Positions 22,283-36,889 of a stretch of 64,000 nucleotides of DNA are shown piece by piece. A program made the translations under genes and the position numbers. Origin of the DNA: Giesbergeria sp. Lineage in GTDB: Bacteria; Pseudomonadota; Gammaproteobacteria; Burkholderiales; Burkholderiaceae_C. How positions within the stretch are numbered: position 1 is the first letter of the stretch; each line of letters starts with the position of its first letter. The notes under the pieces were generated by a model that ran no database searches, was not told where the DNA came from, and worked only from the letters and a program-made list of their open reading frames with translations. The stretch is from the NCBI GenBank assembly GCA_034676525.1, contig JAUCCA010000012.1, positions 417,033 to 481,032 of the forward strand. Reading direction: 5' to 3'.

Positions 22283-23430
22283 GCCGACTTCCGATCCAAC
22301 GCCGCACGCTGGCCTTGTTGGCCGTAATGGTGCCGCTTTTGGCACTGTTCATTTATGTCGTGCTTCGCTCGGGTCCACTGGCGCCCGTCGCCGTCACCGT
22401 CACCGCCGTAGAGCAACGCGCCATCACGCCCGCCCTGTTTGGCATTGGCACCGTGGAGGCACGCACTACGTACCACGTCGGCCCCACGGTTTCGGGCCGC
22501 GTGCTGCGCCTGTTGGTAGAGGTGGGTGAGCACGTCGTCGCTGGCCAGGTGCTGGGCGAAATGGATGCGGTGGATTTTGACGAACGCCTGCGCGCCCAGG
22601 TTGCCGCCGTGCAACGTGCTCAGGCCAGCTTGAAGGACGCGCAGGCGCGCCAGCAGCAGGCACAGACCCAAGCCACGCGCTACGCCCAATTGCTGGCCGC
22701 ACGCGCCACCAGCGAAGAAACCGCCAGCGCGCGCCAGCAAGATTTGCTCTCCGCCAACGCTGCTCTGGCGGGCAGCCAGGCTGAGGTGGCGCGCCTGCGC
22801 GCCGAGAAGGAGGCCCTGCGCACGCAGCGCGGCCAGTTGCGCCTGCGCGCTCCGGCAGATGCGCTGGTGACGGCCCGCTTGGCGGAGCCCGGCAGCACTG
22901 TGGTGCCAGGGCAAGCGGTAGTGGACTTGGTAGACCCAGCCAGCCTGTGGGTCAACGTGCGTTTTGACCAGACGAGTTCCGCCGGCCTGCGCGCAGGCCT
23001 GCCGGCGCAGGTGTTGCTGCGCTCCGACGTAGGGACGCCACTGGCCGCACGCGTTCTGCGCGTTGAGCCCCTGGCCGATGCCGTGACCGAAGAGACGCTA
23101 GCGAAGGCGGTGCTCACCGTTTTGCCCAATCCGCTGCCGCCGCTGGGCACGCTGGCGGAAGTCACCATCACCTTGCCGGAACTCGCCGCCGCACCCACTA
23201 TTCCCAATGCCGCCTTACGGCGCGTGGGCGGCAAGATGGGCGTCTGGGAACTGGATGCCGACGGCCTGCGCTTTGTCCCGCTGGTCTTGGGCCAGGCCGA
23301 CCTGGACGGCCATGTGCAGGTGCAAAGCGGCCTCAAGCAAGGCGCGCGCATCGTCGTCTACAGCGAAAAAGAACTGAGTGCCCGCAGCAACACTCACGAG
23401 GTCGACCGCATCGCCAAGGTGGCCCCGTGA
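22279..23430 (+). CDS. Efflux periplasmic adaptor (HlyD/MacA-like)
   Basis: TM anchor, GTVEA...VGPTVSGRV lipoyl half-motifs, coiled-coil hairpin; ATGA overlap. Confidence 0.9.
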   Translation: MSRLPIQRRTLALLAVMVPLLALFIYVVLRSGPLAPVAVTVTAVEQRAITPALFGIGTVEARTTYHVGPTVSGRVLRLLVEVGEHVVAGQVLGEMDAVDFDERLRAQVAAVQRAQASLKDAQARQQQAQTQATRYAQLLAARATSEETASARQQDLLSANAALAGSQAEVARLRAEKEALRTQRGQLRLRAPADALVTARLAEPGSTVVPGQAVVDLVDPASLWVNVRFDQTSSAGLRAGLPAQVLLRSDVGTPLAARVLRVEPLADAVTEETLAKAVLTVLPNPLPPLGTLAEVTITLPELAAAPTIPNAALRRVGGKMGVWELDADGLRFVPLVLGQADLDGHVQVQSGLKQGARIVVYSEKELSARSNTHEVDRIAKVAP

Positions 23431-24674
23431 TCAGCCTGGCCGGCCGCGACATCCTCCATGCCTGGGGCAAGTTTGTCTTCACGGGCATTGGCTTGGGGCT
23501 GCTGATTGGCGTCACCCTCACCATGGCAGGTGTCTACCGCGGCATGGTGGACGACGGACGGGCCCTGCTGGACAACAGCGGCGCCGACATCTGGGTGGTG
23601 CAGCAGGGCACGCTGGGCCCCTACGCCGAACCCTCGAGCCTGAACGACACCACCTGGCGCAGCCTGCGCACGCTGCCTGGCGTGCAGGACGCCGCCAACG
23701 TCACCTACCTCACCATGCAAGTGCAGCGCCTGGCAGGCAACGCTGGCAATGCGGGCGCAGCCGGCCCTGCCAGTGCCGCCAGCGACGTGCGCGCCATGGT
23801 GGTCGGCATCGCACCCGGCGGCAGCGGCACGCCCGGTTGGCCGCCCTATCTGGTCGCCGGGCGGCATCTCACGCGCAGCCACTACGAAGCCGTGGCCGAC
23901 ATCGCCAGCGGAATGGCGCTGGGCGAGCGCATTCAGATCCGGCGCAACGTGTACACGGTCGTTGGGCTCACGCGGCGCATGGTGTCCTCGGGCGGTGACC
24001 CCATGGTGTTCATTCCGCTCAAGGATGCCCAGGCGGCGCAATTCCTGCGCGACAACGATGCCCTGTGGCAAAGCCGCTACCGTACGGCTGCCAACCCCGC
24101 TTTCAATCGCCCCGGTGTCCCCGGCCTGCTGGACGCAGTGATTGCCTCGCAAGGTAGCAACCCGTCGGTCAACGCTGTGCTGGTCCGGGTGCGCGAAGGC
24201 CACGACGCCGACGCAGTGGCAAAGTCGATCGACCGCTGGCAGCGCCTCACGGCCACCACGCGCGCGCAGATGGAAGACATTCTGGTCGGCAAGCTGATTG
24301 CCACGTCTGCCAAGCAGATCGGCATGTTTCTGGCCATTCTGGCGCTGGTCAGCGCAGCCATCGTCGCCTTCATCATCTATACGCTCACGCTGGGCAAGAT
24401 CCGCGAGATTGCGGTGCTCAAACTCATCGGCACCAAGAACCGCACCATCGCCGGAATGATCGTGCAGCAGGCGCTGGGCTTGGGGCTCATCGGCTTCGTG
24501 GTCGGCAAGATCTCCGCCACGCTGATGGCACCCGCGTTTCCCAAATACGTTCTGTTGGTCCCAGAAGACACCGCAATGGGTTTGGCGGCGATCCTCGCCA
24601 TTTGCGTGCTGGCCAGCGGAGTAGCCATTCGCGCTGCGCTCAAGGTCGATCCAGCCGAAGCGGTAGGAGGCTGA
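23427..24674 (+). CDS. ABC transporter permease (MacB/FtsX-like)
   Basis: N-terminal TM, large periplasmic domain, three C-terminal TMs, REIAVLKLIG. Confidence 0.9.
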   Translation: MISLAGRDILHAWGKFVFTGIGLGLLIGVTLTMAGVYRGMVDDGRALLDNSGADIWVVQQGTLGPYAEPSSLNDTTWRSLRTLPGVQDAANVTYLTMQVQRLAGNAGNAGAAGPASAASDVRAMVVGIAPGGSGTPGWPPYLVAGRHLTRSHYEAVADIASGMALGERIQIRRNVYTVVGLTRRMVSSGGDPMVFIPLKDAQAAQFLRDNDALWQSRYRTAANPAFNRPGVPGLLDAVIASQGSNPSVNAVLVRVREGHDADAVAKSIDRWQRLTATTRAQMEDILVGKLIATSAKQIGMFLAILALVSAAIVAFIIYTLTLGKIREIAVLKLIGTKNRTIAGMIVQQALGLGLIGFVVGKISATLMAPAFPKYVLLVPEDTAMGLAAILAICVLASGVAIRAALKVDPAEAVGG

Positions 24675-24675
24675 T

Positions 24676-25412
<737 letters not shown>

Positions 25413-25416
<4 letters not shown>

Positions 25417-25835
25417 AACCCTTGCTGCAACGCAATCGCTGGCTGCGCGGCGCCAGCGTGTTCGCTGTGCTCTTTGGCCTCCTCACCGTGAACGAAGGCG
25501 GCACCGTGCTGTTCGGCGGCGCGGCTGCGCGCAGTGCTGCCGGGGCCTATGTGCTGTTTGTGCTCTGGTTCAATTTCGTGGCTGGTTTTGCTTACGTGGC
25601 TGCGGGCATCGCGCTGTGGCGGCGCCTGAGCTGGGCGCCGTGGCTGGCGCTCAGCATAGGTCTCGCCACCGCCGTGGTGTTTGTGGCCTTCGGCATCCAT
25701 GTGCTGACGGGCGGCCCCTTTGAAGTGCGCACCGTAGCCGCCATGGCATTGCGCACTGCAGTGTGGCTGGGCATCGCCATCCTGGCCTTGCGCCTGCGGC
25801 GCGGCCGCGCGGACCAACTGGAAACCACACCATGA
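25413..25835 (+). CDS. Small 4-TM hypothetical membrane protein
   Basis: ATGA overlaps at both ends; hydrophobic segments. Confidence 0.75.
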
Positions 25836-27307
25836 AAACGCCCTTGCGACCCCCTCTGCAAAGCGGGCGTCCTGCCCTGGCCTTGTTGTTGGCCGCCCTG
25901 CTCGCCGGCTGTGCGGCGGGCCCGGACTATCAAACCCCGACGCCTCTGGCAGATAGCGCTCTGCCGCAACCTGTAATCAACGCGCCGAACAGCGCCAGCA
26001 GCAGCGCCTTTGGCGCGGCGCAGACCTGGAGCGCCGACATGGACCTCGAAGCGCCCTGGTGGCAGCAGCTCGGCTCCCCAAACTTGGACGCGCTGATTGC
26101 CGAAGCCCTGCAGGCCAGCCCGACGCTGGCGGCTGCGCAGGCGCAACTGCGTCAGGCCGAGGAGCTGCAAGGAGCGCAAGAGCGCGCGACAAAATTGCCA
26201 CGCGCCGACCTGGGCGTCGGCAGCGCGCGCCAGCACAGTTCGCCCAGCGCACAGGGTTTGCCGGGCGACGGACGCACGTTCAGCCTGCACAGCGCCAGCG
26301 TCAGCGTGCAGTACCAACTCGACGTGTCGGGCGGCAACCGCCGCGCGCTACAAGCCCTGGCGGCACGCACCGACTACCGCCGCTACCAGCTGGCAGGCGC
26401 CCGCTTGGACCTGGCCGCTCGCGTCGCGAGCACCGCCATCACCCAGGCCCGCATTGCAGCGCAGGCCGAAGCGCTGGAAGCGATTGCCAGCAATCAGTCG
26501 TCACAAACCGACATCGCCCAGGAGCGCCTGCGCCTGGGCCAGGCCATGCCGGCCGATGTGCAGGCCCTGCAGGCGGCGCTGGAGCAGACCCGCGCCTCCG
26601 CGCTGCTGCTGCGCAAGCAGGCGCAGCAGAGCGCGCATCTGCTGGCCGTGCTGGCCGCGCGCACGCCGGGGGCCGAGCCCCTGCCTGCGTTCAGACTGCA
26701 AGATTTCACACTGCCCGCGGCGCTGCCGCAAGTGCTGCCGTCTGAAATGGTGCGCCAACGCCCCGATATTCAGGCGGCCGAAGCCTTGGTGCGGGTGGCC
26801 AGCGCCGAGCATGGCGTGGCCGTGGCGCGCATGTACCCGCAGATCCGGCTCAGCGCGAACCTGGGCAGCCAGGCGCTGACCACGGGTGCCCTGTTTGGTG
26901 GCAGCTCGGCCGTGTGGGGCCTGATTGCCCAGCTGACGCAGCCTTTGTTCGACCCAGCTCTGCCCGCGCAAAGACGCGCTGCATTGGCCGGTCTGGATGC
27001 TGCGGCCGCCCAGTACCAAAGCGTGGTGCTCGAATCGCTGCGCAGCGTGGCCGATGCCCTGCGCGCGAGCGAGGCCGATGCCCAAGTGCTCGCCACGCTG
27101 GAGCGCGCCGACACCGCCGCACAGGCCAGCCTGGAGACCACGCAGCAACAACTGGCGCTGGGCGCTGCCAGCTACGTGCAATGGCTGGTGGCCCAGCAGC
27201 AAGCCCTGCAATTGCGCAGCAGCCTGGTGGCGGCACAGGCCCAGCGCCTGGCCGACAGTGCCGCACTGTTTCAGGCCGTGGGCGCGGGCGTGGCTACGCC
27301 GGGTTGA
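25832..27307 (+). CDS. Outer-membrane efflux lipoprotein (NodT/TolC family)
   Basis: Lipobox LAGC-AAGPDY, WWQQLGSP, ALQASP, RQRPDIQAAE and YPQI. Confidence 0.92.
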   Translation: MKTPLRPPLQSGRPALALLLAALLAGCAAGPDYQTPTPLADSALPQPVINAPNSASSSAFGAAQTWSADMDLEAPWWQQLGSPNLDALIAEALQASPTLAAAQAQLRQAEELQGAQERATKLPRADLGVGSARQHSSPSAQGLPGDGRTFSLHSASVSVQYQLDVSGGNRRALQALAARTDYRRYQLAGARLDLAARVASTAITQARIAAQAEALEAIASNQSSQTDIAQERLRLGQAMPADVQALQAALEQTRASALLLRKQAQQSAHLLAVLAARTPGAEPLPAFRLQDFTLPAALPQVLPSEMVRQRPDIQAAEALVRVASAEHGVAVARMYPQIRLSANLGSQALTTGALFGGSSAVWGLIAQLTQPLFDPALPAQRRAALAGLDAAAAQYQSVVLESLRSVADALRASEADAQVLATLERADTAAQASLETTQQQLALGAASYVQWLVAQQQALQLRSSLVAAQAQRLADSAALFQAVGAGVATPG

Positions 27308-27659
27308 GGACGCCGCCCGCCGGAAGCACCGTGCGTTCAAAGTGGCGTCTGATGTGAGCGCAAGCGCCTTCGCACAGCAGGTCTGCAGGGCTGTCCGTGC
27401 GCCTGTACCAAGCGCGCTGGCCGCGCATCTCTCGCAGCACCAAGCCATGACGCGCCAAGAGCGCCAGGTGACGAGACGCATTGGCCACGCTGCAGCCACA
27501 GCGCTGCGCCAATTCGCCCACCGTGCATTCGCCCATGCCGAGCGAACGCAGCAGTTGAAGCCGCGTCGGCTCCCCGAGCAAGCGGAAAGTCGCTGCAAGT
27601 TGCGCTATGTCGCAACCGGCTCGCGTGCAGTCTGGTTTCATGGCGTTGTGCATTCGCAA
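27294..27659 (-). CDS. ArsR/SmtB-family repressor, Cys-rich
   Basis: FRLLGEPTRLQLL...TVGELA...SVANASRHLALL...GLV; seven Cys including C-terminal LCEGAC. Start may be 27641. Confidence 0.85.
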   Translation of the reverse strand: MRMHNAMKPDCTRAGCDIAQLAATFRLLGEPTRLQLLRSLGMGECTVGELAQRCGCSVANASRHLALLARHGLVLREMRGQRAWYRRTDSPADLLCEGACAHIRRHFERTVLPAGGVLNPA

Positions 27660-27758
27660 ATCAACTTATTGACTATTTAGTTGTTTGCGCAAATAATAGC
27701 CTAAGACTTTCCGATTGGCCAATCCACTGCGTTGCGGTGAGATGTAAGAACGAGAAAC

Positions 27759-28797
27759 ATGCAGCACCTCCCCCTCTTTCATAAAAGCACTGGCAATCGC
27801 GCTTGCACTGCTTGGAACAGCCAGTGCAGCCGACCTTCAGACCGCCCCCGCGCAAGCGGCAGCGCTCGGTGGTCGCACCGGGTTTGACGGTGTCGTCGAA
27901 GCCGTGCGCCAGACCGTGGTGGCCGCTCAGACTCCTGGTGCCGTGGTCGAGCTCAACGTGAAGGTGGGCGACCACGTCAAAGCCGGGCAGTTGCTGCTGC
28001 GCATCGACGCGCGCGCGGCCGACCAGAGCGCCGCCGCGAGCGACGCCCAAGTGCAGGCTGCCCGGGCATCACTCGATGTCGCCACGCGCAGCTACGAGCG
28101 GCAAAAGCAGTTGTTCCAGAAGAAGTACATCAGCCAGTCGGCGCTGGACCAGGCCGAGTCCAGCTACAAAGCCGCGCGCGCCCAGGTGGCGGCTCAGGCG
28201 GCGCAGGCCGGTGCTGCGCGCACGGGCGCTGCCCTCAGCACCGTACGCGCGCCCTACGCAGGCATCGTGGCCGAAGTGCCAGTGCAGTTGGGCGACATGG
28301 CCATGCCCGGCCGCACCCTGCTCTCGCTCTACGACCCCAGCAGTCTGCGGGTAACGGCGGCTGTGCCGCAGTCGCTGTCGCCAGGCGCGCAATCGGACAC
28401 CGTGCGTGTGGAATTGCCCGGTTTGCCCGCCGCGCAGCAATGGCCCCAAGCGACGCGCGTGCAGGTGCTACCCACCATCGACGCTGCCACGCATACCGTG
28501 CAGGTGCGCGCCGAGCTGGCCGCCAGCGTGCAGGGCGCCGTGCCCGGCATGTTTGCCCGCCTGTGGTTGCCGGTCGTCGATACCGGCGAGACAGACAAGA
28601 GAGTGACCGTTCCGGTCTCGGCCATCGTGCGCCGCGCGGAAATGACGGGACTGTACGTGCAGGACGCCAATGGCAAGCCGCTGCTGCGTCAGGTGCGCCT
28701 GGGACGCACTGAAGGCGACCGCGTCGAAGTGCTCAGTGGCGTGGCGCCGGGTGATGCGGTGGTGCTCGACCCGCAGGCCGCCACCCGCGCACGCTAA
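27759..28797 (+). pseudogene. RND periplasmic adaptor with a 1-nt insertion near 27770-27779 in the signal peptide
   Basis: ATG 27759 stops early. The adaptor frame (FIKALAIALALLGTASA...VEAVRQTVVAAQTPG) is bounded by TAA 27745-27747 and has no start until GTG 27904. Removing one C or T restores MQHLP(L/S)FIKALA. Confidence 0.75.
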
Positions 28798-28807
28798 AGG
28801 TCTCGAC

Positions 28808-31800
28808 ATGCAAGAGCAGAAGCACAAGCACATGGGAATCTCAGGGCGCATTGCGGCGTTCTTTCAGGGAGCGCAAATCACGCCGCTGCTGGCCCTGGTG
28901 GCGCTGCTGCTTGGCGCATTCGCCGTGCTGGTGACACCGCGCGAGGAAGAGCCGCAGATCAACGTCACCATGGCCAACGTGCTGATTCCGTTCCCCGGCG
29001 CCAGCGTGCGTGACGTGGAGCAGATGGTCGCCATTCCCGCCGAGCAGGTGCTCTCGCAAATCACCGGCGCCGAGCATGTGATGTCGCTCTCGCACCCCGG
29101 CATGGCGATTCTTACGGTGCAGTTCAAGGTGGGCGTTCCGCGCACCGAGGCGCTGGTGCGCCTGTACGACACCGTCAACTCCAACGCCGACTGGCTGCCC
29201 AAGGGCCTGGGCGTGATGGACCCGATCGTCAAGCCCAAGGGCATTGACGATGTGCCCATCGTCTCGCTCACGCTGTTCAGCGACCAGCAGGAGACCGGCG
29301 CCTTTGACCTGGAGCGCGTGGCGCACAGCGTGGAAGCCGACTTGAAGCGCGTGCCCGGCACGCGCGAAGTCACCACCATCAACGGCCCCGGCCGCGCCGT
29401 GATGGTGGAGCTCGACCCTGCCCGCATGGCCGGTATGGGCGTGACGGTGGCCGACCTGCGCATGGCGCTGCAGTCGGCCAACCTGGGCCTGCCTGTGGGC
29501 GAGTTGCTGGGCGGCAACCGCTCAGTAGCGATCGAATCGGGCCCTTTCCTGCGCGATGCCAGCGAGGTGGCCGACCTGGTGGTCGGCGTGCGCGGCGGCA
29601 AGCCCGTGTTTCTGCGCGAAGTGGCCCAGGTGCGCGACGGCGCGCCGCCGCCCAGCCGCTATGTGTGGCACGGCACGGCGGGCGAGAAGGCGGCGGAGTT
29701 TCCGGCTGTCACCATTGCCATCACCAAGAAGCCGGGCGAGAACGCCATCGACGTCGCCAACGCCGTGATGTCGCGGGTCGAAGCCCTGAAGAACACGGTG
29801 ATTCCAGCCGCTGTGCAAGTGGCCGAGACGCGCAACTACGGCGCCACCGCCAACGACAAGGCGCAAAAACTCATTCAGAAGCTGCTGTTCGCCACCGCAT
29901 CGGTGGTGGCGCTGGTGTTTATCGCACTGGGGCGGCGCGAGGCCGCCATCGTCGGCACCGCCGTGGTGCTGACGCTCACCGCCACGCTGTTTGCATCCTG
30001 GGCCTGGGGCTTCACGCTAAACCGCGTGTCGCTGTTTGCGCTGATCTTCTCCATCGGCATCTTGGTGGACGACGCCATCGTGGTGGTGGAAAACATCCAC
30101 CGCCACCAAAAATTAGAACCGGGCAAAACGCTGGCGCAGATCATTCCCGGCGCGGTGGACGAAGTCGGCGGCCCCACCATCCTCGCCACGTTCACCGTGA
30201 TTGCCGCGCTGCTGCCCATGGCGTTTGTCTCGGGGCTGATGGGCCCGTACATGAGCCCCATCCCGATCAACGCCAGCATGGGCATGCTGCTCTCCTTGGC
30301 GATTGCCTTTGTGGTTACGCCCTGGCTGGCACGCCTGTGGATGAAGCCGCACCATGGCTCGGATGCCGAAGGCCACGCCGCACCTTCGGGCATGGCACGG
30401 CGCATCACGCCGCTGTTCACACGCATTTTTACGCCGCTGCTTGACGAAAAACGCGGCGGGCGCAACCGAGGCTTGCTGGGGCTGGGCGTGGCGCTGCTGA
30501 TCGCCATCTCGGTGGCGATGCCCGCCACCGGGCTGGTGCTGCTCAAGATGCTGCCGTTTGACAACAAATCAGAATTCCAGGTGGTGGTGGACATGCCCGC
30601 CGGCACACCGGTGGAGCGCACCGCTGCGCTGATGCACGAGTTGGGCGCATACCTCGCGACGGTGCCCGAGGTGACCGACTACCAGGCCTATGCCGGCACG
30701 GCAGCACCCATCAACTTCAACGGTCTGGTGCGCCAGTACTACCTGCGCGCAAGCGGCGAGGTGGGCGACATTCAGGTCAACCTGGTGGACAAGCACGACC
30801 GCCACGACCAAAGCCACGCCATTGCCACGCGTGTGCGCCCGCCACTGCAGACAATAGCCAAGCGCTTTGGCGGCAACGTGAAAGTGGTCGAAGTGCCGCC
30901 CGGCCCGCCGGTGCTTTCACCCATCGTGGCGGAAATTTATGGACCTGAGGCCGAAGGCCGCCGCAAGGTGGCCAAGGCGGTACGCAGCGTGTTCGACAAA
31001 GCCGAAGGTCTGGTGGACGTGGACGACAGCAGCATCGCCGACGCCCCGCGCACCGTGCTGCTGGTCGACCGGCGCAAGGCCGCCATGCTGGGCGTGCCTC
31101 AGCAGGCCATTGTGACCACGCTGCGCGCCGGGCTGGCGGGTGAAGCGGTGGCCTATTTGCACGACCAGAGCAAGTACCCAGCCGCAGCCACGCTGCAACT
31201 GCCGCCGGAGCAACAAGGCAACCTGGCTGCGCTGCTTCAGCTCACGGTGCGCTCGGCCAGCGGTGCGCTGGTTCCGATTCGCGAGCTGGTCAACGTGAGC
31301 GACCAGCTCCGCGAGCAGCCGATCCACCACAAGGATTTGCTGCCCGTGAACTACGTGCTCGCCGACATGGCCGGCAAGGTGGACAGCCCGCTCTACGGCA
31401 TGTTCGAGATGCGCGGCGACATCGCCCAGCTCGCCATGCCCGACGGCGGAAAGCTGGAGGAATATTTCATCAGCCAGCCGCAGGACGCCTGGCGCGGCTA
31501 CGCGCTCAAGTGGGACGGCGAGTGGCAGATCACCTACGAGACCTTCCGCGACATGGGCGCCGCCTACGCCGTGGGCCTGATCCTGATCTACTTGCTGGTG
31601 GTGGCGCAGTTCGGCAGCTACCTCACGCCGCTGATCATCATGGCGCCCATTCCGCTGACCATCATTGGTGTGATGCCGGGCCACGCGCTGCTGGGCGCGC
31701 AGTACACCGCCACCAGCATGATCGGGATGATTGCGCTGGCCGGCATCATCGTGCGCAACTCCATTCTGCTGGTGGACTTCATCAACCTGCAGGTGCGAAG

Positions 31801-32071
31801 CGGCGTTGAGTTCAGGCAGGCCATCATCCACTCGGCCATCACCCGCGCGCAGCCCATCGTGCTCACGGGCCTGGCCGCCATGCTGGGGGCGTTCTTCATT
31901 CTGGACGACCCGATTTTCAACGGCCTGGCGATTTCGCTGATCTTCGGCATCGCCGTCTCCACGCTCCTCACGCTGGTGGTCATTCCCACCCTGTACTACG
32001 CGGCGTACCGCAAACGTCTGCACCGGCTGTTGCCGCCGGCGGCAGACGTGGAAACGCTATCCCATTCATAG
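28808..32071 (+). CDS. RND efflux transporter permease (AcrB/AcrD/AcrF family)
   Basis: PREEEPQI, SIGILVDDAIVVVEN, GIIVRNSILLVDF and RAQPIVLT. Confidence 0.93.
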   Translation: MQEQKHKHMGISGRIAAFFQGAQITPLLALVALLLGAFAVLVTPREEEPQINVTMANVLIPFPGASVRDVEQMVAIPAEQVLSQITGAEHVMSLSHPGMAILTVQFKVGVPRTEALVRLYDTVNSNADWLPKGLGVMDPIVKPKGIDDVPIVSLTLFSDQQETGAFDLERVAHSVEADLKRVPGTREVTTINGPGRAVMVELDPARMAGMGVTVADLRMALQSANLGLPVGELLGGNRSVAIESGPFLRDASEVADLVVGVRGGKPVFLREVAQVRDGAPPPSRYVWHGTAGEKAAEFPAVTIAITKKPGENAIDVANAVMSRVEALKNTVIPAAVQVAETRNYGATANDKAQKLIQKLLFATASVVALVFIALGRREAAIVGTAVVLTLTATLFASWAWGFTLNRVSLFALIFSIGILVDDAIVVVENIHRHQKLEPGKTLAQIIPGAVDEVGGPTILATFTVIAALLPMAFVSGLMGPYMSPIPINASMGMLLSLAIAFVVTPWLARLWMKPHHGSDAEGHAAPSGMARRITPLFTRIFTPLLDEKRGGRNRGLLGLGVALLIAISVAMPATGLVLLKMLPFDNKSEFQVVVDMPAGTPVERTAALMHELGAYLATVPEVTDYQAYAGTAAPINFNGLVRQYYLRASGEVGDIQVNLVDKHDRHDQSHAIATRVRPPLQTIAKRFGGNVKVVEVPPGPPVLSPIVAEIYGPEAEGRRKVAKAVRSVFDKAEGLVDVDDSSIADAPRTVLLVDRRKAAMLGVPQQAIVTTLRAGLAGEAVAYLHDQSKYPAAATLQLPPEQQGNLAALLQLTVRSASGALVPIRELVNVSDQLREQPIHHKDLLPVNYVLADMAGKVDSPLYGMFEMRGDIAQLAMPDGGKLEEYFISQPQDAWRGYALKWDGEWQITYETFRDMGAAYAVGLILIYLLVVAQFGSYLTPLIIMAPIPLTIIGVMPGHALLGAQYTATSMIGMIALAGIIVRNSILLVDFINLQVRSGVEFRQAIIHSAITRAQPIVLTGLAAMLGAFFILDDPIFNGLAISLIFGIAVSTLLTLVVIPTLYYAAYRKRLHRLLPPAADVETLSHS

Positions 32072-32110
32072 CTACTGGCGCTTACCAAATAAGCGCTAAA
32101 GCACCATTTG
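32068..32110 (+). repeat. REP-like repeat, copy 2 (supplies the stop codon of the RND gene)
   Basis: ATAGCTACTGGCGCTTACCAAATAAGCGCTAAAGC; the TAG at 32069-32071 ends the ORF. Confidence 0.8.
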
Positions 32111-32120
32111 ATTGATAAAA

Positions 32121-32483
32121 ATGACCCGAAATTACCTAGACCTGACCCGCGAAATTTCGACCGAAGTGCACAAGCTTCGCGCCGACATCCCCGACACCTT
32201 GCGCGGCTTTTCCGCCATGGCGCAAGCCGCCGGTCAACCCGGCGTGCTGGACGCCAAAACCAAGGAGCTGATCGCCATGGCGTTGTCGGTTTCCTCGCGC
32301 TGCGACCCCTGCATTGGCTTCCACGCACAGGCCCTGGTGAAGTTCGGCGCCAGCCGCGCCGAGCTGGCCGAGATGCTGGGCATGGCGGTTTACATGGGCG
32401 GCGGGCCGTCGCTGATGTACGCCGCCAAAGCCTCGGCCGCTTTTGATGAATTTGCCGCCCTGGCCGCGCCGGCCACGGCCTGA
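32121..32483 (+). CDS. AhpD/carboxymuconolactone decarboxylase-family protein
   Basis: LDAKTKELIA...RCDPCIGFH (CxxC plus His), YMGGGP. Confidence 0.88.
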   Translation: MTRNYLDLTREISTEVHKLRADIPDTLRGFSAMAQAAGQPGVLDAKTKELIAMALSVSSRCDPCIGFHAQALVKFGASRAELAEMLGMAVYMGGGPSLMYAAKASAAFDEFAALAAPATA

Positions 32484-32502
32484 CCTCCCCGGAGAAACCT
32501 GC

Positions 32503-33912
32503 ATGCCCCGCCAGCGCCTCACCGCCCACGCCGCCGCAGTTGCACTCGCCGCCGCCAGCCTCTGGGGCGCAGCGCCGCAAGCGCAGGCCGCCGACCTGGC
32601 GGCCGCGTTTGCCGCCGCCGAGCAGCACGACCGCAGCTACGCCGCCGAACGCGCTGCGCACGACACAGCGCAACCCCGGCGCGACCAAGCCGCCGCGCTG
32701 TGGCGGCCCGGGGTGCAGTTCCAGGCGACGGCTGGCCTGGGCAGCAGCGAGACCGACACGCGCGGTGCGCAATTTGGCGCACCGGGCCTCGGCACGTCGC
32801 AGGGTGTGGATTTCTCCACCTCGGTGAACGGCGGCGCCAGTACCCGCTGGGCGCTGCAGGCGAGCCAGCCGCTCTACAACCCACAACGCCGCGCGCAGCA
32901 GCGCCAGCTCAACACCGCTGCCGAAGTCGCAGAGCGCAGCTGGCAGGTGGCGGGCCAGCAATTGGCCCAGCGCGTAGCCCAGGCCTGGTTTGGCCTGGCG
33001 CTGTCGCGCGAATCGCTGGCCGTGCTCGATGCGCAGCTTGCGGCCGTGCAGCGCATCAGCCAGGAGGCGCAAGACCGCTACGACCTGGGCGACGCCCCCA
33101 TCACCGCCACGCACGAAGCGCGCGCCCGCTTGGCGCTGCTGCGCGCCCAGCGACTGGCCGCGCAAAACGACATAGCCGTGAAAGAGCGCGCACTCACCGA
33201 CCTGACAGGCCTGCCCGTTGCGGCCCTCGACGCAAAAGCCCCCACCCACGTGGCGGCCAACGCCACGCCGCTGCCGGCATGGCAGGCCGAGGCTGAGGCC
33301 CAGAACCTGCAACTTCAACTGCAACAACTGGCTGTGGACAACGCGCAGGCCGCCGCCGACCGCCTGCGCGCGGGCAGCAGCACGACCGTGGACCTGGTCG
33401 CCCAAGTGGGGCAAGAGCGCATCCACGGCAGCGGCGACTACGGCAGGGCACGTAATAGGGCGACGAATGCCCTAGTGGGCGTGCAGATCACGGTACCGTT
33501 GTGGACCGGCGGCATGCAAAGCGCCCGTGAGCGCGAAGCCATTGCGTTGCTGGAAAAGGAGCGCGCAACGCTGGACGCCACGCGCGAACAGGTGGCACGC
33601 GATGTCCACACCGCCTGGCTGCAACTGGCCACCGGCGCCGAGCGCGTGCGCGCACTGGCCGAAGCGCACTCCGCCAGCAGCGAGCGCCTGAACGCCACCC
33701 AACTCGGCCAAGAGGTGGGCGACCGCACGCTGTTGGATGTGCTTACTGCCCAAAACGACCAAGCCGCAGCGCGCCTGCAACTGGCCCAGGCGCGCACCGA
33801 ATGGCTGCTCGCCCGCCTGCAACTGGCCACGCTCAGCGGTCGCCCTGGCAACGCCGCGCTGCAAGCCCTGAACGCCGCCATGACCGAATCCGGTACGCAG
33901 CCCACCCACTGA
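32503..33912 (+). CDS. TolC-family outer-membrane channel
   Basis: Signal peptide, ASQPLYN, QITVPLWTGG and GDRTLLDVL. Confidence 0.88.
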   Translation: MPRQRLTAHAAAVALAAASLWGAAPQAQAADLAAAFAAAEQHDRSYAAERAAHDTAQPRRDQAAALWRPGVQFQATAGLGSSETDTRGAQFGAPGLGTSQGVDFSTSVNGGASTRWALQASQPLYNPQRRAQQRQLNTAAEVAERSWQVAGQQLAQRVAQAWFGLALSRESLAVLDAQLAAVQRISQEAQDRYDLGDAPITATHEARARLALLRAQRLAAQNDIAVKERALTDLTGLPVAALDAKAPTHVAANATPLPAWQAEAEAQNLQLQLQQLAVDNAQAAADRLRAGSSTTVDLVAQVGQERIHGSGDYGRARNRATNALVGVQITVPLWTGGMQSAREREAIALLEKERATLDATREQVARDVHTAWLQLATGAERVRALAEAHSASSERLNATQLGQEVGDRTLLDVLTAQNDQAAARLQLAQARTEWLLARLQLATLSGRPGNAALQALNAAMTESGTQPTH

Positions 33913-35244
<1,332 letters not shown>

Positions 35245-35271
35245 CGCGCAACCGCCGTCACTCTCAAATCA

Positions 35272-35314
35272 ATAGCTGCTAGCGATTACCCTATAAGCGC
35301 TAGAGGCCATTTTT
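35272..35314 (+). repeat. REP-like repeat, copy 3
   Basis: ATAGCTGCTAGCGATTACCCTATAAGCGCTAGAGGCC. Confidence 0.8.
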
Positions 35315-35335
35315 ACCCTAAATCTGGAGATTCCC

Positions 35336-35749
35336 ATGAACCCGCCCTATGCCTTCGCTATCACCATTGCCCAGCCACTCGCACAGGCGGTGGAGACGCT
35401 CCGCGCGGCCTTGGCCGCCGAGCAAATGGGCATCGTCAGCGAAGTGGACATGCAGGCCACGCTCAAAGCCAAGCTCGGCATCGACAGTGCGCCGCAGCGC
35501 ATTCTCGGCGTGTGCTCGCCCAAGGTGGCGCACGCGCTGGTCACAGCCGAACCCGACATCGCCGCACTGCTGCCCTGCGGCGCCAGCGCGCTGGAGGCCA
35601 CGCCCGGCCAGACCCGCGTGCTGCTGCAAGACCCGCGCGTCATCCTCACGGCCAGCGCCAGCCAGGACCCAGCCGTCAAGGCGGTACTGGAAGAAGCCCG
35701 CGTCGCCGTGCTGCGCGTGGTGGCGGCCTTGGGCGGCCACGCGAGCTGA
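35336..35749 (+). CDS. DUF302 domain protein
   Basis: GIVSEVDMQATLKAKL...ILGVCSP...AALLPC pattern. Confidence 0.85.
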   Translation: MNPPYAFAITIAQPLAQAVETLRAALAAEQMGIVSEVDMQATLKAKLGIDSAPQRILGVCSPKVAHALVTAEPDIAALLPCGASALEATPGQTRVLLQDPRVILTASASQDPAVKAVLEEARVAVLRVVAALGGHAS

Positions 35750-35752
35750 CCC

Positions 35753-36889
35753 ATGGCCACCGCCGCACGCATCACCATCCTGGGCAGCGGCTTTGGCGCC
35801 CTGTCTGCGGTGCGCGAACTGCGCGCTCGGGGCTGCCAGGGCGACATCACCCTCATCTCGCCCCGCGCCGAGCTGCACTACCTGCCCGGCATCATCTGGA
35901 TCCCCAGCGGCCTGCGCACGCGCGAGCAGCTCATCGTGCCGCTGGCGCCGTTTTTTGCACGGACCAAGGTGCGCCACCTCTGCGCCGAGGTCACGGGCCT
36001 CTCCCCCGATGGCCGCAGCGTGCAGACCACTTCCGGCGAGGTGGCGAACGACGCGCTGGTGATTGCCACCGGCGGCCGCTTCATCAAAAAGCTCCCCGGC
36101 ATAGAACACGCCATCACGCCCTGCGAAGGCATTGCGGCAGCCGAAAAGATTCGCGACCGCCTAAAGGCCATGAGCTTCGGCACCATTGCCGTCGGCTTCG
36201 CCGGCAACCCCAAGGAGCCAACCGCCGTGCGCGGCGGGCCCATGTTCGAGTTCCTCTTCGGCATCGACGCGCAACTGCGCAGCGAGGGCCGGCGCGAGCA
36301 GTTCAAGCTGGTGTTCTTCAACCCCTCCAAAGAACCCGGCGCCCGCCTCGGCGCCAAGGCCGTCGCCCACCTGCTGGCCGAAATGGCGCGCCGCAACATC
36401 ACCACGCACCTGGGCCACAAGATGGTCCGCTTCGAGGCCGACAAGGTGGTGACCGAAGGCGGCGAATTTTCGGCTGATTTGATTTTGTTCATGCCCGGCA
36501 TGACCGGCAACGCCTGGTTCGACGAAACCACCCTGCCGCGCTCACCCGGCGGCCTGCTCCAGGCCGACGCCCAGTGCCGGGTGGCGGGATTCGATCATGT
36601 TTATGTAGCGGGCGACTCCGGCAGTTTCCCCGGCCCCGACTGGATGCCCAAGCAGGCGCATATGGCAGACCTGCAGGCCGCCGCTGCCGCACAAAACCTG
36701 ATCGACGGCCTGGCCGGGCGCCCGCAGACGGCGGGCTTCAAGGCGGAGCTGGCTTGCATCATTGATGCGTTGGGGACCGGGACGCTCGTGTGGCGCACTG
36801 AGGAGCGCAATGTGCTACTGCCGCCTCTGCGGCTGATGCACTGGGCGAAGCGGGGGTTTGAGCGGCGGTATTTGGGGCGTTATCGGTAG
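35753..36889 (+). CDS. sqrF: Sulfide:quinone oxidoreductase, type VI
   Basis: 378 aa. Cys124, Cys275 and Cys335, a uniform +3 offset from the recalled Cys121/272/332 of Thiocapsa SqrF. Lacks the type I second Cys (AVRGGPMFE). Confidence 0.78.
   Translation: MATAARITILGSGFGALSAVRELRARGCQGDITLISPRAELHYLPGIIWIPSGLRTREQLIVPLAPFFARTKVRHLCAEVTGLSPDGRSVQTTSGEVANDALVIATGGRFIKKLPGIEHAITPCEGIAAAEKIRDRLKAMSFGTIAVGFAGNPKEPTAVRGGPMFEFLFGIDAQLRSEGRREQFKLVFFNPSKEPGARLGAKAVAHLLAEMARRNITTHLGHKMVRFEADKVVTEGGEFSADLILFMPGMTGNAWFDETTLPRSPGGLLQADAQCRVAGFDHVYVAGDSGSFPGPDWMPKQAHMADLQAAAAAQNLIDGLAGRPQTAGFKAELACIIDALGTGTLVWRTEERNVLLPPLRLMHWAKRGFERRYLGRYR

Follow-up and report, generated by a model that had tools for sequence, protein, structure and literature searches.

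The exit of the sulfur made by sulfide:quinone oxidoreductases (SQRs) from the membrane and periplasm of Gram-negative bacteria bears on sulfide detoxification, on the deposition of sulfur outside cells in wastewater and sediments and on reactive-sulfur signalling. We analysed a locus of Giesbergeria sp. (GenBank assembly GCA_034676525.1) at which a three-part RND efflux pump and two SQRs are encoded in one operon. The window, i.e. the whole stretch of DNA that was analysed, comprises 64,000 nucleotides (contig JAUCCA010000012.1, positions 417,033 to 481,032), and the operon occupies its positions 27759 to 36889. We propose, at about even probability, that this is a sulfide and sulfane-sulfur stress operon in which the pump accompanying the SQRs expels their sulfur product or a close derivative of it, a cargo that we infer.

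The operon and the linkage of its pump clade to sqr

The sequence-only reading had described an adaptor, an RND permease, an AhpD-like protein, a TolC-type channel, SqrA, a DUF302 protein and SqrF as seven plus-strand genes with short gaps, and this layout is borne out by Pfam and NCBIfam identities and by spacers of 10, 49, 19, 60, 91 and 3 nt in gene order. No terminator-like site was found on the plus strand inside any intergenic gap of the operon, and the sole sigma-70-like promoter found for it lies within the intergenic region 27660-27758. The features of the locus are the following:

27294..27653, minus strand: ArsR/SmtB-family regulator of a non-canonical subtype (HTH_20/HTH_5, NF033788), divergent from the operon
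27669..27699, plus strand: operator-like sequence TTGACTATTTAGTTGTTTGCGCAAATAATAG enclosing the promoter-like TTGACT-17-AATAAT (27669-27697), conserved in congeners
27759..28797, plus strand: periplasmic adaptor (MFP) of the RND pump (RND_mfp, TIGR01730, E 1.6e-56)
28808..32071, plus strand: RND permease of a distinct clade (ACR_tran, PF00873, E 1.9e-140)
32063..32100, plus strand: REP-like hairpin repeat GCGCTTA-loop-TAAGCGC in the RND-AhpD spacer, overlapping the RND stop codon
32121..32483, plus strand: AhpD/CMD-family protein with a CxxC motif (RCDPC) and without a signal peptide (PF02627, E 3e-22)
32503..33912, plus strand: TolC-type outer-membrane factor (OMF) with a signal peptide (two OEP domains, E 7.6e-49)
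33973..35244, plus strand: type I sulfide:quinone oxidoreductase SqrA (3SZ0, E 3.6e-186; Cys triad)
35268..35306, plus strand: second, similar copy of the REP-like hairpin repeat, in the SqrA-DUF302 spacer
35336..35749, plus strand: DUF302 protein with two Cys (PF03625, E 4.7e-18)
35753..36889, plus strand: type VI sulfide:quinone oxidoreductase SqrF, 378 aa (Cys pattern, F369, orthologues)

The AhpD-like protein falls within the AhpD/CMD family, scoring 52.6 bits against TIGR00778 (cut-off 27.8), carrying RCDPC at 61-64 and resembling the P. aeruginosa AhpD-like protein 5DIK (E 5e-39), while the OMF reaches 214.7 bits against the TolC family TIGR01844, the cut-off of which is 225.15. The DUF302 stop codon lies 3 nt ahead of the SqrF start, and the DUF302 gene holds the same place in Simplicispira suum. 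The two REP-like hairpin repeats inside the operon could stabilise or attenuate the transcript. On the other side of the regulator, a MacB-type ABC efflux system that is unrelated to the operon and has an OMF of its own (23427-27307) overlaps the last 14 nt of the convergent ArsR gene, and downstream of the operon an ECF sigma factor and a Metal_resist protein are encoded.

It should be noted that the conserved ATG of the adaptor (27759) lies one base off the frame of the long open reading frame (ORF) that carries the signal peptide, with a 1-nt insertion, as assembled, between the two, near the C5/T3 runs at 27771-27779. The nearest alignable congener (L088, 75% identical DNA) has one base fewer there and its adaptor reads through in frame; the comparison was made with this congener only, and the contigs of a 98%-identical relative stop inside the RND gene. 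Deletion of one base from the C5/T3 runs would yield MQHLPSFIKALAIALALLGTASA-ADL, and the insertion reflects an error in the homopolymer runs or else a genuine frameshift.

Absence of linkage between the RND clade and sqr elsewhere, together with an unchanged mutant, had been named beforehand as the outcome that would overturn the export proposal. As the linkage turned out to be very strong elsewhere, with co-occurrence in 114 of 116 genomes and adjacency at 18 of 49 loci, this objection falls away. The adjacency figure stems from a permease scan with one genome per species, which yielded 80 loci at 58-86% identity; type I SqrA lies within 6 kb of the RND gene at 18 of the 49 loci with enough flank to judge. 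The gene orders MFP-RND-(AhpD)-OMF-SqrA, MFP-RND-SqrA, MFP-SqrA-RND and SqrA-MFP-RND were all observed, and the linkage spans Comamonadaceae, Sphaerotilaceae, Burkholderiaceae, Alcaligenaceae, Gallionellaceae and Lysobacteraceae. Mapped onto the permease tree, SqrA adjacency must have been gained or lost at least 11 times, and well-supported branches force 6 of these changes; the linkage has thus arisen or been retained repeatedly.

The co-occurrence figure stems from an even sampling of 401 genomes of the same order, among which the RND clade is present in 177 and type I SqrA in 116, both occurring together in 114. Only 2 of the 224 pump-less genomes carry SqrA (odds ratio 201, Fisher p 7e-51). 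The window's own family follows the same pattern, with the pump in 2 of 10 sampled genomes and SqrA in the same two, and SqrF, found in 22 of the 401 genomes, is accompanied by the RND clade in 21 of these 22. SqrA lies no more than 5 kb from the permease in at least 37 genomes, a lower bound obtained by comparing coordinates by hand, and a divergent SqrA/RND arrangement is also present in this sample.

The operon conforms to a published type, in which sqr shares one operon with an adaptor and an RND permease of this clade. In Azospira suillum PS, Dsui_3440-3443 encode a hypothetical protein, an RND permease, an SQR and an MFP, and Mehta-Kolte et al. (2017, mBio, PMC5358917) reported these genes among the most sulfide-induced by RNA-seq and flagged by Bar-seq. 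The Azospira operon shares with ours the combination of MFP, SQR and RND genes, and its order, MFP-SQR-RND-small hypothetical, is that of two of our loci (L025, L045) and of many genomes of the order-level sample; it differs in having one SQR and no TolC, AhpD, DUF302 or SqrF. Judging from gene order and annotation, Dsui_3441 probably belongs to the same RND clade. Closer counterparts are found at Alicycliphilus denitrificans, where a divergent ArsR gene precedes MFP-RND-OMF-SqrA-SqrF-DUF2892-OsmC, and at Simplicispira suum, with MFP-RND-CMD-OMF-SqrA-DUF302-SqrF. Over all related RND loci, the recurrent neighbours are an ArsR-family regulator (25 loci), a YgaP-like DUF2892 membrane protein (11), thioredoxin 2 (7) and OsmC (5), with AhpD near 4 loci by clustering and about 9 by tblastn. 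That these neighbours, among them regulators of the 2-Cys BigR/SqrR type, belong to thiol or sulfur biochemistry speaks for a sulfide-stress role of the operon.

The linkage bears on the simplest alternative, namely that there is no functional partnership and that sqr and an ordinary multidrug pump are simply under one promoter that responds to sulfane sulfur. Sulfane sulfur does derepress multidrug pumps via MarR-family (MarR/MexR-type) regulators (PMC9495516, PMC11211675), which speaks for this alternative. The co-occurrence in 114 of 116 genomes argues against it, as do the many independent rearrangements after which the genes are still neighbours and the distinctness of the RND clade, which is far from all characterised pumps, and we regard mere co-regulation as very improbable.

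Several further neighbours of related loci were recorded. A cytochrome bd oxidase (CydAB-like, read by eye) adjoins the SQR-RND cluster at three loci (L071, 17095-19814; L023; L078); cytochrome bd is a sulfide-insensitive terminal oxidase. A SLAC1/TehA-type anion channel (cluster c33, 3 loci) comes after OsmC downstream of the pump at L034 and L048 and is also found downstream of the pump at L044; sulfite or another anion could be what it exports. Rhodanese is a frequent neighbour as well, but was rejected as a specific one: in the Gallionella-type loci it belongs, read by eye, to a run of rhodanese, glutaredoxin, SecB and GpsA, and was not counted there because this run is a common housekeeping arrangement. 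At six loci of gammaproteobacterial sulfur oxidisers (L053, L059, L061, L063, L051, L077) no sqr follows the pump clade; its place is taken by a LysR-like regulator (by eye), a small uncharacterised protein and a transporter assigned by Pfam to the AI-2E family.

Two sulfide:quinone oxidoreductases and the fate of their product

The two oxidoreductases had been called type I and type VI from the letters of the window, and both calls withstood comparison with Cys columns, solved structures and orthologue residues. Type I enzymes are defined by a Cys triad (Aquifex 124/156/347; A. ferrooxidans 128/160/356) together with full-length similarity to solved enzymes. SqrA matches the A. ferrooxidans type I SQR 3SZ0 over residues 2-422 (E 3.6e-186), and its C127, C159 and C353 align with the triad, which places it in this type.

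SqrF is more distant from the solved SQRs (best E only 1e-17) and bears an invariant Arg after a PxEP insertion at the column of the essential Cys156/160 of other SQR types. The doubt which this Arg cast on the assignment was dropped, since the type VI Cys pattern is published and the orthologues match its residue numbers exactly. The reference enzyme, TrSqrF of Thiocapsa roseopersicina, has an unusual Cys pattern, with Cys121 binding FAD covalently and Cys332 lying between V331 and I333, and a quinone site lined by F366 and W369 in a short C-terminal domain with a single helix (PMC9666304). Sequence criteria for type VI are accordingly Cys121, a Cys332 with V/I as its neighbours, absence of Cys from the column of the type I Cys156 and a short C-terminal domain with F366, and the window SqrF, compared through the published TrSqrF residue numbers, displays all of them: C124, C275, C335 (A-C-I) and F369 follow the TrSqrF numbering at a constant offset of +3. 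Orthologues from Thiohalocapsa (L097) and Thiothrix (L095), 64-68% identical and 375 aa long, have Cys only at 121/272/332 and retain F366 and W369. Of these, Cys272 is reportedly a catalytic residue (Duzs et al. 2021). The published Cys pattern, the +3 offset and the orthologue residue numbers together identify the second oxidoreductase as a type VI SqrF; the closest named relatives of the protein are from Simplicispira and Giesbergeria.

Arg372 of the window SqrF (36866-36868) replaces the quinone-site Trp, which TrSqrF and the orthologues from Thiohalocapsa and Thiothrix all carry as W369. With the T. roseopersicina enzyme (Duzs et al. 2018, 2021; PMC9666304) the window SqrF shares the short C-terminal domain, the F366 equivalent, a Cys at the covalent-FAD position and one in the V/L-C-I strand, and the lack of a Cys at the Aquifex Cys156 position. 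It differs in this Arg and in its genomic company, as the gene is paired here with a type I SQR, whereas the partner in purple sulfur bacteria is typically of type IV. A division of labour between the type I and type VI enzymes over low and high sulfide, as suggested in the sequence-only reading, would fit the literature on type VI enzymes (PMC9666304).

SqrA and SqrF are the only two SQRs of the genome, the assembly of which comprises 4.07 Mb at 99.99% completeness. Persulfide dioxygenase (PDO) had been noted as absent from the window, and this absence extends to the whole genome: none of its nine MBL-fold ORFs resembles a PDO, as judged by comparison with the PDB for two of the five of PDO size and by eye for the other seven of the nine. 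The sole ORF with partial similarity to PDO structures is an orthologue of the YcbL glyoxalase II (2XF4, E 2e-80), a 308-aa ORF matches no PDO in the PDB comparison, and the remaining seven read as GloB-like, PhnP-like and others. SoxB and SoxY were likewise not found in the whole genome; sHdr, Dsr and SOR were not searched for. With PDO and Sox absent, neither of these two routes is available for further oxidation of the SQR product, which would therefore have to be removed.

This sets the operon apart from the sqr-pdo(-rhodanese) operons, such as PP_0051-0053 of P. putida (PMC10128140). The two have in common an SQR-based sulfide detoxification in a heterotroph, inducible there and presumably so here. 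In the sqr-pdo operons, PDO oxidises the sulfane sulfur to sulfite or thiosulfate, whereas here an efflux pump takes the place of PDO in the operon.

The regulator and its operator

Persulfide sensors of the SqrR/BigR type are characterised by two conserved Cys (alpha-2 and alpha-5) forming a tetrasulfide bridge. In the window regulator the alpha-2 Cys is replaced by Arg (LLRSL as compared to LVCTL of BigR, in an alignment to 3PQJ), and its score against the BigR equivalog model is 28.5 bits at a cut-off of 155. It carries instead a C-terminal CxxxC (C93, C97; LCEGACA), which is kept in its subfamily as LCDLVCG, often together with an N-terminal Cys. The alignment of 25 regulators from upstream of related pumps separates two kinds, the two-Cys SqrR/BigR form (LLCQ ... 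FC) and the CxxxC form. Since both kinds occupy the same position before the same pump, sulfane sulfur is most likely what the CxxxC pair senses. We know of no experimental precedent for sulfane-sulfur sensing by a CxxxC ArsR protein. The window regulator, although not a canonical SqrR/BigR member, may thus act in a similar way.

Li et al. (2025, PMC12423496) reported that ArsR regulators responsive to reactive sulfur species (SqrR, BigR, SoxR, sHdrR) adjoin RND transporter genes. Our locus agrees with theirs in the ArsR-family gene divergent from an MFP-RND pair, and the canonical two-Cys form is found at many related loci; the window regulator differs in its N-terminal Cys and C-terminal CxxxC and in having no alpha-2 Cys.

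The 31-nt operator/promoter sequence occurs exactly twice in the genome, at the operon and at C8:1577646. The second copy is located between a paralogous ArsR gene of the CxxxC type, 49% identical over the aligned stretch, and a DUF2892-OsmC pair (C8:1577220-1578391), which was identified from its similarity to Pfam-confirmed clusters. As DUF2892-OsmC closes the SQR-RND operon of Alicycliphilus, the two loci look like one regulon that has been split in two. The same operator sequence is also present in Simplicispira suum (L084, 1809-1929), where no ArsR gene lies between the upstream OMF gene and the adaptor, and its regulator must therefore be encoded elsewhere.

The pump and its cargo

The permease comprises 1087 aa, with the ACR_tran fold over profile positions 11-1019. 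HAE-1 pumps are recognised by this fold, 12 transmembrane (TM) helices and an Asp-Asp proton relay in TM4, and the TM4 motif GILVDDAIVVVEN at 423-435 is of this HAE-1 DD type, which together with the fold assigns the protein to HAE-1. With AcrAB-TolC and MexAB-OprM it has in common the three-part architecture, the full-length fold and the TM4 relay motif; the similarity to these pumps is weak (about 160-210 bits), and genomic context and regulation are different here. The best PDB match is MdtB with 212 bits, and all named NCBIfam subfamilies score far below their cut-offs (best 436 bits at a cut-off of 1250), so that by sequence comparison the clade stands far from every characterised RND protein. 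Permease, adaptor and OMF contain no Cys at all, which suits exposure to reactive sulfur but proves nothing. No conserved Cys/Met clusters that would hint at sulfur binding were found in the permease, in which conserved Met were not mapped to domains.

These properties bear on the proposal that the cargo consists of metal sulfides, thiometallates or thiophilic metals that sulfide has mobilised, which was favoured for the Azospira operon by its authors (PMC5358917). The ArsR/SmtB-type regulator, its CxxxC as a potential soft-metal site, a sub-threshold match of the adaptor to the CzcB/NccB family and the ECF sigma factor and Metal_resist protein downstream all speak for it. A heavy-metal (HME) identity of the permease was, however, rejected, as TM4 has the DD of HAE-1 and not D-x-D-x-E, and TIGR00914 gives 229 bits at a cut-off of 701, the CzcA family scoring below the multidrug families. 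The regulator at many related loci is the canonical two-Cys persulfide sensor, and the pump co-occurs with SQR and not with metal genes. Metal export is for these reasons improbable in our view.

We return to the proposal that the pump serves the SQRs, which would work as follows. The ArsR-type repressor would sit on the operator that overlaps the sole promoter and be released by sulfide or sulfane sulfur, upon which the whole unit would be transcribed, as RNA-seq has shown for the Azospira counterpart. SqrA, a high-affinity type I enzyme, and SqrF, of a type reported for high sulfide, would then oxidise sulfide at the membrane, passing electrons to quinone and releasing polysulfide or zero-valent sulfur (S0), the products established for both families. 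The MFP-RND-TolC pump would pick up this product, or one of its small adducts, at the membrane or in the periplasm and expel it across the outer membrane. More speculatively, the cytoplasmic CxxC AhpD-like protein, the DUF302 protein and the separately encoded DUF2892-OsmC pair might handle sulfane sulfur on thiols inside the cell.

A number of observations weigh against this proposal. The sequence features of the operon identify no cargo, and the periplasmic orientation of type I SQR is known for Rhodobacter, another organism. Most related loci are without an OMF of their own, and the adaptor frameshift, if real, leaves this particular pump inactive. About 59 of the 177 genomes with the RND clade have neither SqrA nor SqrF, and the clade is also found in Thiothrix, Thiohalocapsa and Parabeggiatoa, which keep S0 in the periplasm. 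Deletion of the Azospira operon left the rate of perchlorate-dependent sulfide oxidation unchanged (PMC5358917). In our literature search we found no paper that demonstrates export of polysulfide or S0 by an RND system or that identifies the cargo of such a pump.

The clade's presence in those roughly 59 genomes and in bacteria storing S0 in the periplasm would be accommodated if the pump were a general exporter for reactive-sulfur stress, carrying organic per- or polysulfides, thiol adducts or lipophilic by-products rather than the inorganic SQR product. The TM4 motif is of the HAE-1 type, as is typical of exporters of organic amphiphiles, and agrees with such a role, and the thioredoxin, OsmC and AhpD neighbours point to thiol or organic-peroxide chemistry. 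For a general exporter, on the other hand, the bond to sqr is tighter than expected, the clade being missing from only 2 of 116 SqrA-positive genomes and sqr being inserted between the adaptor and pump genes at some loci. We consider this explanation unlikely.

The sequence-only reading is thus confirmed in what it observed and partly supported in its interpretation, and export of the SQR product or a close derivative by an SQR-accompanying pump stays our preferred reading. A stronger form of it can be formulated, in which the clade, with TolC and often DUF2892, is a dedicated exporter of zero-valent sulfur, constitutes the sole disposal route in this organism and is controlled by a novel CxxxC sensor; this we put forward tentatively, at somewhat less than even probability. 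The SQR-RND operon type itself is not novel, as its sulfide induction was described in 2017 (PMC5358917) and ArsR-RND adjacency in 2025 (PMC12423496). New here are the combination, within a single operon, of two SQR types with AhpD and DUF302, a regulator without the canonical alpha-2 Cys but with a CxxxC, and a second operator copy upstream of DUF2892-OsmC.

A pump clade that accompanies SqrA in all but two of the SqrA genomes of the order, often in the same operon, is a concrete candidate for the exit of SQR-made sulfur and within reach of genetics. The Giesbergeria locus is a clean genetic test case, because no PDO or Sox is present to mask a pump phenotype. It further offers a regulator subtype with a Cys arrangement unlike that of SqrR/BigR, and a regulon of just two operators, which lends itself readily to tests. 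A dedicated exporter, if real, would supply the step so far missing from accounts of how sulfur comes to be deposited outside Gram-negative cells.

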